Shown here: positions 11,041 to 61,464 of the stretch, in pieces | Layout: each line of letters begins with the position of its first letter | How positions within the stretch are numbered: the first letter of the stretch is position 1 | Assembly (NCBI GenBank): GCA_017883265.1 | Contig: JADGNX010000001.1 | Coordinates: 812 to 64,811 of the forward strand | DNA from: Thermoanaerobaculia bacterium | GTDB taxonomy: Bacteria; Acidobacteriota; Thermoanaerobaculia; Gp7-AA8 | Length of the DNA: 64,000 bases | Direction of reading: 5' to 3' | Program-made: the position numbers and the translations under genes | The notes under the pieces: generated by a model | What the model was told of the DNA's origin: nothing | Databases searched by the model: none | The model's input: the letters and a program-made list of their open reading frames with translations, nothing else

Positions 11041-11667
11041 TTATGGATGGGGATCGGGTCGCGGCACCCGTGGCGGCGCGCCGGCCTCGATCGCAAACCG
11101 CTCGAATATCTCGTAGGGCTGGCAGCCGCTGAGGCCGAGGTTGCCGATGATGAACGTCGGGATCCCATGGACGCCGACCTCGCTGGCCTCGTCGCGAGCG
11201 TCGTCGACGCGCGCCAGGATCAGCGGATCGCGCGAACGCTCCACGGCATTCTCCGCGAGGCCGGAGTCCAGGGCAATCGCGGCCAGGTCGACGTCGTTCT
11301 CGAGGTCCATACCATCGCGCCAGTGCGCGTCCATGGCCCTCGTTCTGAAGGCCTCGAGCTTCCCTTCATCGCGCGCCACCTCGGCCAACGCCAGTGCGCG
11401 ACGCGTATTCGGAATCCGCTCGCGCTGCTGGAAGTCGTCGATGCCGAACTGCGAAGCGAAACGCTTCATGTAAGCCGCCATGCCGGACAGCTTATCGGCT
11501 GGGAACATCTCGTCGAGCCGCGCTCCGCCCGCCGGTGTCTCCGGATGAAGCTCGAACCCGCGCCAATCGAGCTCCAGATCGAATTCCCCGAGCAGCCTGA
11601 CCAGACTGCTTCGCTCAGCGATATAGCAGAACGGTCAGACGAAGTCGGAGTAAAGGCGAAGTTGCAT
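11041..11667 (-). CDS. FrnE/DsbA-family thiol:disulfide oxidoreductase with an in-frame TGA (candidate selenocysteine) replacing the first Cys of the CxxC motif
   Basis: ATG at 11667..11665 is preceded by an in-frame TAG. Translation gives MQLRLYSDFV-[TGA 11637..11635]-PFCYIAERSSLVRLLGEFDLELDWRGFELHPE, continuing in frame into the track ORF 11041..11508. This matches the FrnE N-terminus ([20 protein letters not shown]). The total 208 aa equals FrnE length. Confidence 0.55.
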
Positions 11668-55991: not shown

Positions 55992-56750
55992 TCAACCGGT
56001 GCGCGCCGGCACCTCCGCGGGCACTTCGAATAGCCGGAACGCCGGCTTGTCGGGATAGAGGCGCGCCAGGAGGGGCATGGCCACGTTGAACACCGGGATG
56101 TTGCTCCTGGTCCGCCCTTCTGGCGCCCCGTGGTGCGCGTGGCCGTGGAATACTGCGTTGACGCGGTACCGCTCGAGCGGCTCTTCCAGACGGCTGGAGC
56201 CGAGGAAGGCGATCATTTCGGGAGGCTCGCCGACTACGGTGGCCTGAATCGGTGCGTAGTGAAGGACGGCGATTTTCTGCGGGGTGCGGAGCCGTGCCAG
56301 AGCCGCCTCGAGTTTCAGGCTCTCCTCCACGGCCTCGTGCACGAAGTCCTTGATGAGCTTTTCTCCCCAGGCGCCGAGGGCACGCCGGCCGAACCCACCG
56401 GCGAAACCTTTAACCCCCGCAAAACCGACGCCGTGCAACTCGTGCGAATCTCCGTCCAGCATGATCACGCCGGCCCCGGCCAGAATCTTCGTTACCTCGT
56501 CCTGCTGGCCCGACTCGAAATCATGGTTTCCGAGCACGGCGATGACCGGTACGCGGACCGAGGTCGTCAAATCCTTCGCCAGGATCTTTGCCTCTTCCAC
56601 CGTGCCATAGTCGGTGAGGTCACCACAGAGGAGGAGGACGTCCGCGTCCTCATTCGCGCTCGCGAAGAGTGGCTGTAGTGACCCGGCTGAATTCTTCTTG
56701 ATGTGAATATCGCCAACAGCAGCGATACGCAGCGTTGCTCGAGTGGCCAT
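55992..56750 (-). CDS. Calcineurin-like metallophosphoesterase
   Basis: 252 aa with GDIH, GDLTDYG, GNHD and GHAHH motifs in canonical order. Confidence 0.75.
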   Translation of the reverse strand: MATRATLRIAAVGDIHIKKNSAGSLQPLFASANEDADVLLLCGDLTDYGTVEEAKILAKDLTTSVRVPVIAVLGNHDFESGQQDEVTKILAGAGVIMLDGDSHELHGVGFAGVKGFAGGFGRRALGAWGEKLIKDFVHEAVEESLKLEAALARLRTPQKIAVLHYAPIQATVVGEPPEMIAFLGSSRLEEPLERYRVNAVFHGHAHHGAPEGRTRSNIPVFNVAMPLLARLYPDKPAFRLFEVPAEVPARTG

Positions 56751-56753
56751 GAA

Positions 56754-57557
56754 TCATTTGTCCTTGTCGATCGCTGCAGTCCAGTGCGCGATCTCCGCAG
56801 AGGTCATGTTTCCTCGCGGCTGCAGACGAGCGTCCTCGTAACCCCACAGGCCGATGTCGGTAAGATACTGCTGGCGCGAGATAATCGGACCGAAACAGAC
56901 TCGTTCGCTGCCTTCCGGCGCAGCCGTTTCCTGCTGCAGCCTCCCGGTCAACTCCTGGACTACCCACCTTGGAACTTTGGATCGATGGGAGGGATAGATA
57001 AACCCGAAGAGGATGATGTGTGCAAACAGAGGTCTCCACAGATGGCCGAAACGGTCGAGGAGCCGGCGCCAGTCCATCTGATCGCCGCGAGCGTGGATGA
57101 CGTGCGCGACATCCGCGCCATCGTAGCGCTCGCGCTCCATGATCAGGCCCTTCGACCAGATCATCTCCTCGGCCGGAATGAGACGGACCGGCAGGTCGAG
57201 CACGGTGCCTTCCGTCGACTTCTCAAACCAGATATTGTCAACGCGCGCCACGCCGTTTCCAGCACTGAAGATGAGGTCGATGAAGTCCTCGCCGTGATAC
57301 GCCTTGCCCAGCCAGTGGGGAAAGGTAAGGTCCGTTTGATAGCCGGCGTCCTGCAGCGTCCGGGAGATCCGCGGATAGTCCTCGCGTTTGACAAAGATGT
57401 CGAAGTCCTTGGTGTGACGCTCGATGCCGGTGTATCTGGCAAAGGCGTACGCTCCGCCGACCAGGTAAGGCAGCTTCTGCTCGTTCATGATCGACAGCGC
57501 GCGCCGATAAAATGTCCGGCTCTTTTCGTCGATCCCCTGGTCCATCGCGGTAGGCAT
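56754..57557 (-). CDS. Pol-beta-superfamily nucleotidyltransferase-domain protein
   Basis: ATG 57557 is preceded by GAGGAAGAG. The LVGGAYAFARYTGIERHTKDFDIFV segment matches the hG[GS]x9-13DhD NTase signature. The ~180-aa C-terminal domain has unknown function. Confidence 0.5.
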   Translation of the reverse strand: MPTAMDQGIDEKSRTFYRRALSIMNEQKLPYLVGGAYAFARYTGIERHTKDFDIFVKREDYPRISRTLQDAGYQTDLTFPHWLGKAYHGEDFIDLIFSAGNGVARVDNIWFEKSTEGTVLDLPVRLIPAEEMIWSKGLIMERERYDGADVAHVIHARGDQMDWRRLLDRFGHLWRPLFAHIILFGFIYPSHRSKVPRWVVQELTGRLQQETAAPEGSERVCFGPIISRQQYLTDIGLWGYEDARLQPRGNMTSAEIAHWTAAIDKDK

Positions 57558-57625
57558 TGGATTCTCTTCCTCAACCCGAGGTCGTTCCGGATAAGTGCAC
57601 CTTCCGGACCACTTGCGAGGAGTGG

Positions 57626-58450
57626 TCAGGCTTCCTTGATTCCCTCGGCCCACGACATCGCAAACCAGAAGGCCGCGTCATCCCGACTCGACCACGCAAT
57701 GAGGTTTCGTAGAACGACATCGTAGTAATCGGCGTCGAACAGCTTGTGAAGGACCACGGTCTCCCTTGCCCCGTCCAGGATGCCGTGAAGGTTTTCCACG
57801 AGATCGGCAAAGTTGTCGCTACCGGCGCAGCCTCCGAAAAAAATCCAGTCATTGCGTCGGGCCCTTGCTCCTGCTTCGACCAGCAAGGAGGTCAGGCGTC
57901 GCCCGATGAATGGATCATTTCCGATGCGCTCATAGGACCGCATGTACGCTCTCCAGAGATCGGCCAGCCCCGGCGGCTCGGGCCACAAACGCAGAACGTC
58001 GTGGTCGTCGTCGGCCAGGATGATCCGGCCACCGGGCTTCACGGCTCCCACCATGGCCTGCACCACAGACAGAGGGTCAGAAAGATGTTCGAGGAGAAAA
58101 CGGGCGTGCGCGACATCGAACGACCCATCCTCCGCGTCGGTGAGGGGAGGATCGGCTGCGTCGCCGTGGCGGAAAAGGACCAGAGATTCTTCGTTGTCGG
58201 CACGAGCCAGCTCGATGGCCCTCGCGAGCTGCTCCTCACTCCGTTCGATGCCGACCACGCGACCGGGGGCGGCCTCGCGCGCCATCTCACGGGTGAACTG
58301 ACCGAGGCCACAGCCGAAATCGACGACGCTGTCTCCGGGCTGGAGGCTCAAACGGGCGCGCGAGGCGGGGTTCAGAATCCGGTTCATCACTCCGAGGCGG
58401 CGCTGTTCCACCGGAGATGTGCCATGAATGTAAGTCGATGGAGACTGCAT
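57626..58450 (-). CDS. Class I SAM-dependent methyltransferase
   Basis: ATG 58450 gives MQSPSTYIHG. Motif I VVDFGCGLG and post-I acidic residue. The start ATG overlaps the upstream stop as TGATG. Confidence 0.7.
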   Translation of the reverse strand: MQSPSTYIHGTSPVEQRRLGVMNRILNPASRARLSLQPGDSVVDFGCGLGQFTREMAREAAPGRVVGIERSEEQLARAIELARADNEESLVLFRHGDAADPPLTDAEDGSFDVAHARFLLEHLSDPLSVVQAMVGAVKPGGRIILADDDHDVLRLWPEPPGLADLWRAYMRSYERIGNDPFIGRRLTSLLVEAGARARRNDWIFFGGCAGSDNFADLVENLHGILDGARETVVLHKLFDADYYDVVLRNLIAWSSRDDAAFWFAMSWAEGIKEA

Positions 58451-59391
58451 CACTCCGCCTCGACTGCCTTCACAGAATAACCGGCGTCGGCCCAGCCCTC
58501 CAGCCCTCCTGCGAGGGGGCGAACCAGCGTGAATCCCTGATCGATCAGCATGCGAGCCACACGGGCCGCTGAGGCTTCGTTTGGTCACGTGCAGTACAGG
58601 ATGATCTCCTGGGATGGCTTCATCCCCGCCATGCGCTCGTTGATCTCAGAGAGGCTCATGACCATGGCTCCGGGGATCATTCGTGGATCGCTCTTCCGCG
58701 CCGAGCGCGTCCTGACGTCGAGAACCACGACCGCCTCGCCAGCGTCCATCATTCGCTTGAGCTCTGCCGGCTGGATGCGGGCCATACGCAGGTGGCGATA
58801 GAACCGGATTCGCTGCCACCACTTCAGGAAAATGAAGAGCGCAAGCAGCGAGACAGCCACCACGCCGCCCCAGACGCCCAGATTCTGCAGATGCCGCAAC
58901 ACTTCGTGAAGCGCGTGCCGGAAGATGAAGCCGACGGCGATCCCGCTACCGGCCCAGAGAAGCGCTCCAGCCGCATCGTAGGCCATGAAGAGGAGTGCCG
59001 ATGCCCCGATGGCTCCGGCCAGAGGAGGTCCGACGGTCGAATATCCGGGGATGAACTTCGCCGCGATCAGCGAGGGAAGTCCCCAGCGCTCGAAAAAAGT
59101 CTCGGTTTCGCGAACGCAGGAATCGGGGGAAAGAGAAATCCTGCAGAGCGTGCGCAGGATCCTCCAGCCGTAGCGACGGCCGAGGAGAAACCAGACGATA
59201 TCAGCGATCAGAGAGGCGAGCACCGCAGCCATCAGGATCGATGAAGTCGAGAGGCGGCCTTCGCGAATGAGCGAGCCGGCGACGAGCAGAACGGGAAGTG
59301 CCGGAATCGGCGCTCCTAGCTGCTCCAGAAGGACGTTCAGAAACACGAGCGGTGTGCCATGGCGCACGACGAGGGTGACCAGCTGCTCCAT
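58450..59391 (-). CDS. DedA(VTT)-family membrane domain fused to a C-terminal rhodanese domain, with an in-frame TGA (candidate selenocysteine) at the rhodanese catalytic-Cys position
   Basis: The track ORF 58585..59391 ends ...EIILYCT-TGA(58587..58585). The same frame continues PNEASAARVARMLIDQGFTLVRPLAGGLEGWADAGYSVKAVEAE to TGA 58452..58450, which overlaps the methyltransferase ATG. The extension is the canonical rhodanese C-terminus (GG..W). Ungapped alignment to GlpE puts the TGA on the catalytic Cys. Confidence 0.55.
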
Positions 59392-59435
59392 ACTCGACAG
59401 TGTGCCACAGCGCCGCGGAGCGCTGGAGACCTTGC

Positions 59436-60395
59436 TTACCAGACCTCGTCAATCCGGATCGCAGAGCTCCGGGTGGTGAGCCGGATGACCGGGCTGGCTT
59501 TCCCGATCCGCAGATGGCGAGGTGGATGGTCTGGCGGCAGCTCCATGCAACGGGCCAGATGGCACTCGATCTGCCCGCCCGCGGCAGACTCAGCTTCGAT
59601 GCGCCCGCTGAAATCATCTCGTACATGCAGGCGAACATCCCCACTCTCGCTCCGAGCGTCGAGCAGACGGCCCCATTTCTGGCCCGGCAGGCTGATGGCG
59701 ATGTCGCCGGTGACGGTCGCGGCCGAGACGTCCCCGGTGGTCGACTCGATGGCGATGCCGCCACTCTCGCTGCGGGCGTCGAGCGAGCCGCCGGCATGAT
59801 CGATGGTAATGCCGCCGCCCACGGAATGAACGTGCTGCTCGCCGACGCAGGAGGCCAGGGAGATCTGGCCGTTCGTGGTTTGTGCCTCGATGCGGCCATT
59901 CATGTTACGGACGGCGATGCCGCCGTTTGCAGCCGCCAGCTCGAGGGCAATACCACGCGGAACCTCGAGAATCATATGGACCCACCAGGCCCGCTCGGAA
60001 GTGAGGGCAGGCCCGCTCGACCTGATCCGGCCGTCGAGGGCGCTGGTCACCGAAACCGATCCCAGGACATTCCGCGCCTCCAGAATGGTGGCGGCCGCCG
60101 CAAACTTACAGACCGTCAGGCGCGCGTCCGAGCGACTCCATCCCCGAATGGAGATGCCGCCCGCCTCGCTGGCGGTTACCGAGAGCCTGCCCAATGACGA
60201 GATGGGAAGGAGCCGATGCTCTTCGCCATGGACTTCCGCTCCCAGGGTCGTGAAGCTCGTCGTGTGAAAGTGCTCGCACGATTCGACGTCGCTATGCTCC
60301 TGTGTCGTGGCGATGAAGGAGCGCGTCGTTGGTCGCGCCGCAACCGCGGTGATCAGCAGTACAGGAATCAGAGCTGCCGCAATGCGCATGACCAT
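59436..60395 (-). CDS. Secreted DUF4097-like (putative adhesin / beta-helix repeat) protein
   Basis: Signal peptide MVMRIAAALIPVLLITAVAA, then repeated G-x-I-x-(V/I)-x-x-x-x-G(D/S)(I/V) turns such as GGIAIESTTGDV and GDIAISLPG. Confidence 0.5.
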   Translation of the reverse strand: MVMRIAAALIPVLLITAVAARPTTRSFIATTQEHSDVESCEHFHTTSFTTLGAEVHGEEHRLLPISSLGRLSVTASEAGGISIRGWSRSDARLTVCKFAAAATILEARNVLGSVSVTSALDGRIRSSGPALTSERAWWVHMILEVPRGIALELAAANGGIAVRNMNGRIEAQTTNGQISLASCVGEQHVHSVGGGITIDHAGGSLDARSESGGIAIESTTGDVSAATVTGDIAISLPGQKWGRLLDARSESGDVRLHVRDDFSGRIEAESAAGGQIECHLARCMELPPDHPPRHLRIGKASPVIRLTTRSSAIRIDEVW

Positions 60396-60453: not shown

Positions 60454-61464
60454 CTATCCGCCGATATGCGACATCTCGACTTTCTTCAGACGGAGAGTCG
60501 CCTCCGAGCGGATCTCCGAGTAGCGGTCACCGCGATCAGCCCAGGTCGAGGCGATCAAAGCCGCGACCGTCTCATCGTCGGCGCCGGCACGGAGGAGTCC
60601 TCTCACGTCGCGACCAGAGCCCGCGAAAAGGCAAGTATAGAGCTCGCCGGCGGCTGAGAGCCGTGCCCGCGTGCAACTGCCGCAGAACGGCTGGGTGACC
60701 GAAGTGATGATGCCGATCTCCCCGGCGCCGTCTTCGTACGTCCATCTCCCGGCAACCTCGCCAAAATAAGTCGGCTCTGCGGTTCGCAACGGCCATTCAG
60801 CCGCGATCCTTTCGGCGATCTCCCGGCCGGCTACGACGTCTTCCATACGCCAGGCGTTGGTGTTCCCCACATCCATGTACTCAATGAATCGCACGATATG
60901 TCCCGACCAGCGGAAGCGAGCCGCCATCGGAACGACGCTGGCATCGTTCACGCCGCGCTTGACCACCATATCGATTTTCAGTGGGGTGAGACCGGCCGCA
61001 GCCGCCGCGTCGATGGCGTCGAGAACCCGGGTCACTGGAAAGCTGACGTCGTTCATCGAGCGGAAGACCGCATCGTCGAGAGAATCGAGGCTGATGGTGA
61101 TACGCCGGAGGCCCGCCGCCCTGAGTGCCCTGGCCCGCTCCGCGGTCAGCAGCGAACCGTTCGTGGTCAGCGCGAGATCCTCGAGGCCATCGATCGACCC
61201 GAGCATTGCGATGAGGTGTTCGATGTTGCGCCGGAGCAGAGGCTCACCGCCGGTGAGGCGAATCTTCTTCACTCCCTGCCGCACGAAGATTGCCGCAAGC
61301 CGGGCGATCTCTTCAAAGGAAAGAAGCTCACTCCGTTCGAGAAACGCAAACTCACGGCCGAAAATCTCCTTCGGCATGCAATACGGACAGCGGAAGTTGC
61401 ACCGGTCGGTGACCGAGATCCGCAGATCGCGCAGAGGTCTACGCAGTTTGTCGAAGAGAGGCAT
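60454..61464 (-). CDS. moaA: GTP 3',8-cyclase MoaA (radical SAM, molybdenum cofactor biosynthesis)
   Basis: 336 aa with the radical-SAM cluster CNFRCPYC near the N-terminus and a C-terminal second cluster region (CGSCTRARLSAAGELYTC). Confidence 0.85.
   Translation of the reverse strand: MPLFDKLRRPLRDLRISVTDRCNFRCPYCMPKEIFGREFAFLERSELLSFEEIARLAAIFVRQGVKKIRLTGGEPLLRRNIEHLIAMLGSIDGLEDLALTTNGSLLTAERARALRAAGLRRITISLDSLDDAVFRSMNDVSFPVTRVLDAIDAAAAAGLTPLKIDMVVKRGVNDASVVPMAARFRWSGHIVRFIEYMDVGNTNAWRMEDVVAGREIAERIAAEWPLRTAEPTYFGEVAGRWTYEDGAGEIGIITSVTQPFCGSCTRARLSAAGELYTCLFAGSGRDVRGLLRAGADDETVAALIASTWADRGDRYSEIRSEATLRLKKVEMSHIGG

Follow-up and report, generated by a model that had tools for sequence, protein, structure and literature searches.

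An in-frame UGA at the catalytic position of a DedA–rhodanese fusion from Thermoanaerobaculia is very probably decoded as selenocysteine

Does the in-frame TGA that closes an annotated DedA/VTT protein gene of a Thermoanaerobaculia bacterium end translation, or is it read as selenocysteine (Sec)? The gene lies on the minus strand of a 64-kb stretch of contig JADGNX010000001.1 (hereafter the window, in whose numbering positions are given). Its annotated open reading frame (ORF), 59391..58588, encodes 268 amino acids with the C-terminus ...QEIILYCT, followed by TGA 58587..58585. The same frame continues past this codon for 44 more residues, PNEASAARVARMLIDQGFTLVRPLAGGLEGWADAGYSVKAVEAE, up to a second TGA at 58452..58450. 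An earlier note, made from the letters of the window, had described the ORF as stopping in the middle of a rhodanese domain with the frame reading on to the second TGA, and all of its coordinates proved correct. Public data (NCBI, JGI, and ENA) consistently list members of the gene family as a “DedA/VTT protein” cut short at 268 residues. Judged from its sequence, the gene product is instead a Sec-containing, CxU-type rhodanese fused to a DedA membrane domain.

We examined the domain that the annotated stop interrupts. With the U replaced by C, the read-through protein matched PF00581 over profile positions 2-101/102 (E = 4e-13; 50.1 bits against a gathering score of 22.2). As the TGA lies inside this complete rhodanese match, the annotated stop cuts the domain in half. 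In a phmmer alignment, U269 fell without gaps on the Cys of YLYCGSGFRS, the catalytic residue of 6MXV, a rhodanese of solved structure, which bears out the earlier suggestion that the TGA occupies the catalytic Cys position of rhodaneses. This is where a rhodanese has its nucleophile, behind the central beta-strand as the active-site loop begins. The active-site motif is C-x-U in the Sec forms of the family and C-x-C in the Cys forms. An AlphaFold (AF2) model of a Cys-containing homologue, P0009 (mean predicted local distance difference test score, pLDDT, of 84.5), consists of a helical membrane domain, a long helix at residues 158-203, and a rhodanese fold, and its best PDB matches were rhodanese domains: Alr3790, 6MXV, and the PRF fusion 5VE3.

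The fate of the UGA was then compared across species. Homologues numbered in the thousands when 5.8 billion proteins were searched, and the best 120 clusters were inspected. About 90 of these clusters (56-98% identity) were exactly 268 amino acids long (a few were 265-271), and the remainder measured 306-323 amino acids. The truncated homologues all ended in ...LYCT, and the full-length ones read YC[TAN]CP[NS]EASAARVA at the same point. For the codon itself, we used the DNA of 80 species-representative genomes encoding a relative, with the window gene added as the 50th TGA form. The aligned codon was TGA in 49 of the 80 loci and TGC or TGT in the other 31, so that orthologous DedA–rhodanese fusions do alternate between Sec and Cys, a comparison that the earlier note had proposed. 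The 49 TGA loci belong mainly to Thermoanaerobaculia/Acidobacteriota, together with one Rokubacteria metagenome-assembled genome (MAG) and five loci clustering as Betaproteobacteria, and the 31 Cys loci come mainly from Gamma- and Betaproteobacteria. The species that keep the TGA are for the most part bacteria of soil type. The Sec forms make up a deep acidobacterial clade and a separate betaproteobacterial clade, with the active-site motif [LVF]YC[TAIS]U (LYC-T-U in the window).

What follows the TGA is conserved as protein. All TGA loci have another 39-64 open codons in frame, which encode PNEASAARVAR...VRPL.GG..W, a block kept in all 80 loci, TGA and Cys alike; no TGA-bearing orthologue was found to end at this codon without the downstream half of the rhodanese in frame. 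Across the 29 codons after the TGA, entropy by codon position was 0.35/0.29/1.23 bits, which indicates purifying selection on the protein downstream. The internal codon was TGA in all 50 forms, and the terminal stops of the same genes were mixed (TGA 33, TAG 9, TAA 7). TGA is also an ordinary stop in the window, ending 34 of its 47 long ORFs.

These data bear on two simpler explanations. One is a sequencing or assembly error concealing a true TGC or TGT, given that one base (A instead of C or T) would turn Cys into a stop. The identical 268-amino-acid product is, however, on record from NCBI, Logan, and JGI assemblies (10 members in a 90% cluster), and the same TGA recurs in ~90 further clusters and in 49 species genomes; we give such an error practically no credence. 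The other is that the TGA is an ordinary stop and that the locus is a pseudogene, namely a DedA gene, truncated or in decay, that retains half a rhodanese domain and is followed by a relic of the frame. Gene callers and the NCBI/JGI annotation do end the protein at 268 amino acids, and no Sec machinery was seen in the window. Yet 49 other species carry the same TGA at the same codon with the downstream codons intact, the entropy profile is of the coding type, the internal stop is always TGA despite mixed terminal stops, and a relic would not retain an RNA hairpin with compensatory changes, as described below. A pseudogene is accordingly highly improbable. Together, the conserved TGA, the intact coding frame, the mixed terminal stops, and the use of TGA as an ordinary stop lead us to exclude a pseudogene, a sequencing error, and also a genome-wide reassignment of UGA.

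Decoding of UGA as Sec in bacteria calls attention to the RNA just 3′ of the codon. The earlier note had placed a hairpin there, AGCGGCC-CGUGU-GGCUCGC, as a candidate selenocysteine insertion sequence (SECIS), and the hairpin sits at that position. Folded in isolation, it has a free energy of -8.6 kcal/mol and accounts for 88% of the ensemble. The 6-bp bulged stem was intact in 45 of the 50 TGA forms; four others had an unbulged, perfect stem (GCGGCC/GGCCGC) and one had 5 bp. Among the 31 Cys forms, the hairpin was intact in a single locus, L029. The loop was CGUGU in 46 TGA forms and CGGGU in four, and it was highly variable in the Cys forms.

Changes in the stem were compensated. Pair 24-30, which joins two third-codon positions, is C-G in 45 forms and G-C in the 5 betaproteobacterial forms, and compensatory changes were found at pairs 24-30 and 21-33. 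A GCC codon for the first Ala was always accompanied by GCG for the later Ala (15/15), the bulge thereby moving by one base. The named structure had 94.1% of its cells paired, compared to 84.5% in column shuffles, with a covariation score of 0.227 compared to 0.060; none of 500 shuffles reached either value, and controls with slid partners gave 26-54% paired. RNAalifold recovered the upper stem independently. Synonymous-site entropy at positions 24, 27, 30, and 36 was 0.40-0.47 bits in TGA forms versus 1.15-1.87 in Cys forms, and the bulge position in TGA forms had an entropy of 1.9 bits. The Arg codon in the loop was CGU in 46 of the 50 TGA forms, whereas CGU accounts for 6.1% of the Arg codons in the rest of these genes. 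On these alignments, the hairpin is under RNA-level selection only in the forms in which the UGA would have to be decoded, being selected in TGA forms and lost in Cys forms.

Two sets of loci stand out among these alignments. L029 (10805..10867) has TGC, and its hairpin is intact with the CGUGU loop. As it is the sole Cys form nested within the acidobacterial Sec clade, we read this hairpin as a fossil SECIS, and L029 looks like a recent Sec-to-Cys replacement. The betaproteobacterial Sec clade (L037, L049, L050, L062, and L066, all MAGs) has the stem pair G24-C30 rather than C24-G30, and the preceding Ser codon is AGC rather than UCN. L049 is labelled as a Streptomyces MAG yet clusters with L050, so its contig is probably misbinned.

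The hairpin had also been likened in its geometry to the SECIS of Escherichia coli fdhF, and this holds in part. In both cases, the hairpin lies in the coding region immediately 3′ of the UGA, its stem is interrupted by a bulge of one base, and its apical loop is small and includes G-U. The positions differ: the loop G-U of fdhF, as read from the genome, lies at +23/+24, whereas that of the window hairpin lies at +26/+27, one codon further from the UGA. Furthermore, the bulge is on the 5′ arm in fdhF and on the 3′ arm in the window, and fdhF has an extended helix compared to the 6 bp found here. Bacterial SECIS elements have been described as stem-loops that follow the UGA closely and have G in a small apical loop (PMC1088965), and the window hairpin has this form.

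The capacity of the organism to decode Sec was approached through further genes. Looking for TGA-interrupted ORFs of any kind in the window gave too much noise at 61% GC, but a scan specific to CxxU/UxxC motifs was useful. It is in keeping with the claim in the earlier note of a second, “FrnE-like” redox-Cys TGA in the same 64 kb: the codon (TGA 11637..11635) was confirmed in a DsbA/FrnE-like gene on the same 141,756-bp NCBI contig, 47 kb from the DedA–rhodanese locus, with a Pfam DSBA match and a U-P-F-C motif. In public annotation, the product of this gene starts downstream of the TGA (155 amino acids). Its close relatives are likewise annotated as N-terminally truncated, and distant relatives read LYTDFVCPFC. 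Two relatives (L086 and L087) keep the TGA and have a hairpin, GCAG(C/U)CU-GGUC-AGGCUGC, with an fdhF-like GGUC loop. DsbA-like UxxC proteins are a known selenoprotein family (Sargasso Sea set, PMC1088965), which this gene fits as a separate gene and not as part of the DedA–rhodanese locus.

We searched for the Sec machinery with E. coli SelA, SelB, and SelD by tblastn on the window and the 80 loci, and for tRNA-Sec on the window and loci L001-L060. Neither selA nor selB was matched in the window or the 80 loci, tRNA-Sec was found in neither the window nor those 60 loci, and selD was matched only in L004 and L006. In these two related Thermoanaerobaculia genomes, L004 being a complete 6.6-Mb chromosome, the Sec-type DedA–rhodanese gene is followed, ~1 kb further on and in the same orientation, by selD (L004 11911..12942; L006 8196..9227), which has an in-frame TGA of its own at the Cys17 position (TTGG-U-ACK; TGA 11938..11940 in L004). 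The ORF between the two genes in L004 (10988..11440) had no Pfam match. The published deep-Sep test set of Sec-utilizing bacteria also contains an Acidobacteriota genome. The second Sec gene, the Sec-type selD of relatives, and this Acidobacteriota Sec user together provide indirect support for Sec decoding here.

The UGA could also be read through by a suppressor that does not insert Sec, either an acidobacterial allo-tRNA or a selC*-type tRNA-Cys working with a SelB-like factor. Acidobacteria carry allo-tRNAs that may be nonsense suppressors, and some anaerobes have a tRNA-Sec-like tRNA-Cys that is a possible opal suppressor (Mukai et al., PMC5389517); the window gives no clue to the tRNA that reads this codon. 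However, TGA is the commonest genuine stop in the window, so that suppression in general would come at a cost. At the recoded site, a catalytic Cys position is accompanied by a hairpin close by, and this pairing is the hallmark of decoding through SelB. The selD of relatives itself has a classic Sec codon, and among curated families the closest one is for (seleno)proteins. In addition, selC* has not been reported in Acidobacteria (PMC5389517). We consider suppression of this kind very unlikely.

Several results weigh against Sec insertion and were considered alongside this evidence. None of selA, selB, selC, and selD is present in the 64-kb window, and selD was adjacent in only two genomes, which are close relatives. 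With 6 bp, the stem is short, and the Ala-Ala-Arg-Val-Ala-Arg codons fix part of it. Taken from the window sequence alone, the 48-nt fold after the UGA was no better than shuffles (z = 0.14), and no SECIS family of Rfam was found either over the whole window at the gathering score or over 58400..58700 at E <= 10. As to function, no family-wide conserved neighbour was found among the 80 loci. The minimum free energy over 63 nt also failed to separate Sec from Cys forms (-19.3 versus -17.9 kcal/mol). The single-sequence fold being uninformative, the significance of the hairpin has to be judged from comparison across species only. Cys alternation, downstream conservation, the hairpin, and the second TGA gene all agree with the view taken in the earlier note, of Sec decoding rather than pseudogenes. 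On balance, the comparison of sequences makes it very probable that codon 269 of one 313-residue protein receives Sec in a SelB- and SECIS-dependent manner.

In such a protein, an N-terminal DedA/VTT domain and a long basic linker helix would precede a C-terminal rhodanese carrying Sec in place of the catalytic Cys. By analogy with the mechanism of fdhF-type SECIS, SelB, and tRNA-Sec, SelB·GTP·Sec-tRNA(Sec) would sit on the hairpin while the ribosome is at the UGA, and Sec would be inserted; without selenium or SelB, the 268-residue truncated product would be made. Sec269 could then act as a nucleophile, taking up sulfane sulfur, selenium, or another electrophile as an Se-S or Se-Se adduct. 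Alternatively, it could form a selenenylsulfide with the invariant Cys267 of the CxU motif. The C83-x8-C92 loop of the DedA domain may pass the adduct on.

The DedA domain itself departs from better-known members. The window protein scored 33.1 bits against PF09335, for which the cut-off is 33.9, and precomputed PF09335 matches are on record for homologues and for the identical product. NCBIfam scores for the UptA and DedA equivalogs were far below their cut-offs for the window protein and its homologues. E. coli YghB has an acidic pair, E39 and D51, which we take to be essential in COG0586 DedA proteins; in our alignment E39 is kept as E23, and D51 falls in a gap. YghB Arg130 and Arg136, also named as essential in these proteins (PMC10127716), align with K112 and S118, respectively, and the family motif around the latter position is AKF[IV]PG[FYL][SA]T, with Ser or Ala replacing Arg136. 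As two of these four residues are missing, the domain is probably an anchor or a transporter of another substrate, and the alignment suggests that members of this DedA subfamily do not belong to the usual undecaprenyl-phosphate flippases. All Sec and Cys members share the Cx8C motif LCRISLSPDSCV, which E. coli YghB lacks at the aligned position; the CxU/CxC site may have this loop as its partner in a thiol relay. The last membrane helix is followed by KWWQRIRFYRHLRMAR, from which, by the positive-inside rule, the rhodanese domain would be cytoplasmic.

How this protein relates to known rhodanese selenoproteins was considered next. Rhodanese-related sulfurtransferases have been among the listed selenoproteins since 2005, and a 2026 review describes five Sec-containing rhodanese forms, of which form 3 corresponds to NF041203 (CxU) and form 5 has a rhodanese fused to a DsbD-like partner. 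NF041203, “rhodanese_LYCAU rhodanese-related (seleno)protein” (Zhang & Gladyshev 2005, as listed in PMC13188914), has the LYC-x-U motif and the Sec/Cys alternation seen here. It was the best NCBIfam match, at 81.9 bits for the window protein and 64-82 bits for four Cys homologues, none of which reached its cut-off of 115 bits. It differs in being a single-domain profile of ~126 positions, whereas the match here covers residues 201-308 of a 313-amino-acid DedA fusion. Form 5 is a precedent for joining a Sec rhodanese to a membrane redox or transport module; compared by description, its membrane partner is DsbD-like rather than DedA, and its motif is UxxxxU with two Sec residues.

Contrary to what had been supposed, the DedA–rhodanese fusion is not in itself unusual, being a recognised minority architecture of COG0586 DedA proteins. 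Its example, Pseudomonas aeruginosa PA1209 (311 amino acids), resembles the present protein in architecture and length, with an N-terminal PF09335 and a C-terminal PF00581 domain in ~310 amino acids. The described members of the PA1209 type carry Cys, in contrast to the Sec proposed here, and in the present family, annotation labels the Cys forms “DedA family protein/thiosulfate sulfurtransferase GlpE.” In the literature found, no paper combined DedA, rhodanese, and selenocysteine, and the terms DedA, VTT, and SNARE are all missing from the 2026 review. The Sec form of the DedA–rhodanese fusion thus appears to be unreported.

The coordinates of the locus and of other features are collected in Table 1. 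The gene is part of a same-strand string (55992..60395, minus strand) of DUF4097, DedA–rhodanese(Sec), methyltransferase, nucleotidyltransferase, and metallophosphoesterase genes, with MoaA upstream at 60454..61464. The TGATG stop/start coupling to the methyltransferase gene described in the earlier note is present. A methyltransferase gene lies directly downstream in only ~7 of the 80 loci, and tight junctions, with stop and start abutting or overlapping, recur in L002, L013, L026, and L009. Nucleotidyltransferase-like and metallophosphoesterase genes lie downstream in ~10 related loci, and DUF4097 is found in a few.

Table 1. Features of the DedA–rhodanese locus and other genes of the window
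Feature	Position	Strand	Details
DedA(VTT)–rhodanese gene, predicted full-length selenoprotein	58450..59391	-	313 codons + stop, Sec predicted at codon 269; read-through frame kept in 49 TGA loci
DedA/VTT membrane domain, residues 29-148	58948..59307	-	PF09335, 33.1 bits vs cut-off 33.9; E. coli YghB alignment
Invariant C83-x8-C92 motif, LCRISLSPDSCV	59116..59145	-	Loop after GRRYG; invariant alignment columns
Rhodanese domain, residues 208-302	58486..58770	-	Interrupted by UGA in annotation; PF00581, 50.1 bits; NF041203, 81.9 bits
Invariant Cys267, two residues before Sec269	58591..58593	-	Y266 and C267 invariant in family alignments
UGA probably read as Sec, residue 269	58585..58587	-	Motif C267-T-U269; TGA in 50/50 Sec forms, TGC/TGT in 31 homologues; aligns with 6MXV catalytic Cys
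Candidate SECIS hairpin, +19..+36 from U of UGA	58552..58569	-	GCGGCC (58569..58564), loop CGUGU (58563..58559), GGCUCGC (58558..58552), one-base bulge
Predicted true stop, TGA	58450..58452	-	Shares A with methyltransferase ATG 58450..58448
S-adenosylmethionine (SAM)-dependent methyltransferase gene	57626..58450	-	274 amino acids; downstream of DedA–rhodanese gene, same operon here
NTP_transf_5-like nucleotidyltransferase gene	56754..57653	-	Same-strand string
Metallophosphoesterase gene	55992..56750	-	Same-strand string
DUF4097 “toastrack” protein gene	59436..60395	-	Same-strand string
DsbA/FrnE-like gene, putative second selenoprotein	11041..11667 (TGA 11637..11635)	-	MQLRLYSDFV-U-PFCY; TGA replaces first Cys of CPFC

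The biochemical function, including a sulfur or selenium relay, we infer from the domains and their motifs. One specific proposal is membrane-coupled chalcogen capture, in which the DedA domain would bring in or present selenite, selenide, or sulfane sulfur, the CxU site of the cytoplasmic rhodanese would trap it as an Se-Se or Se-S adduct, and the Cx8C loop would pass it to selenophosphate synthetase. The only pointers to such a SelD-feeding device are the selD adjacency in two related genomes and a long-standing genetic link of DedA to selenite (Ledgham 2005, as cited in PMC10127716), and we regard it as an unlikely, if attractive, possibility. If true, it would give that link a molecular basis and account for the adjacent selD(Sec) in L004 and L006.

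If its UGA is decoded as Sec, this gene would extend the short list of rhodanese selenoproteins by one that is anchored in the membrane, and a gene family common in Thermoanaerobaculia/Acidobacteriota metagenomes would prove to have been misannotated as truncated. The deep Sec/Cys split with a traceable SECIS offers a clean case for Sec gain and loss, in which one Cys form retains a “fossil” hairpin and the betaproteobacterial stem shows compensation. The combination of a Sec nucleophile, an invariant Cys, and a family-specific Cx8C loop may also provide a handle on the unexplained DedA–rhodanese fusions of the PA1209 type.

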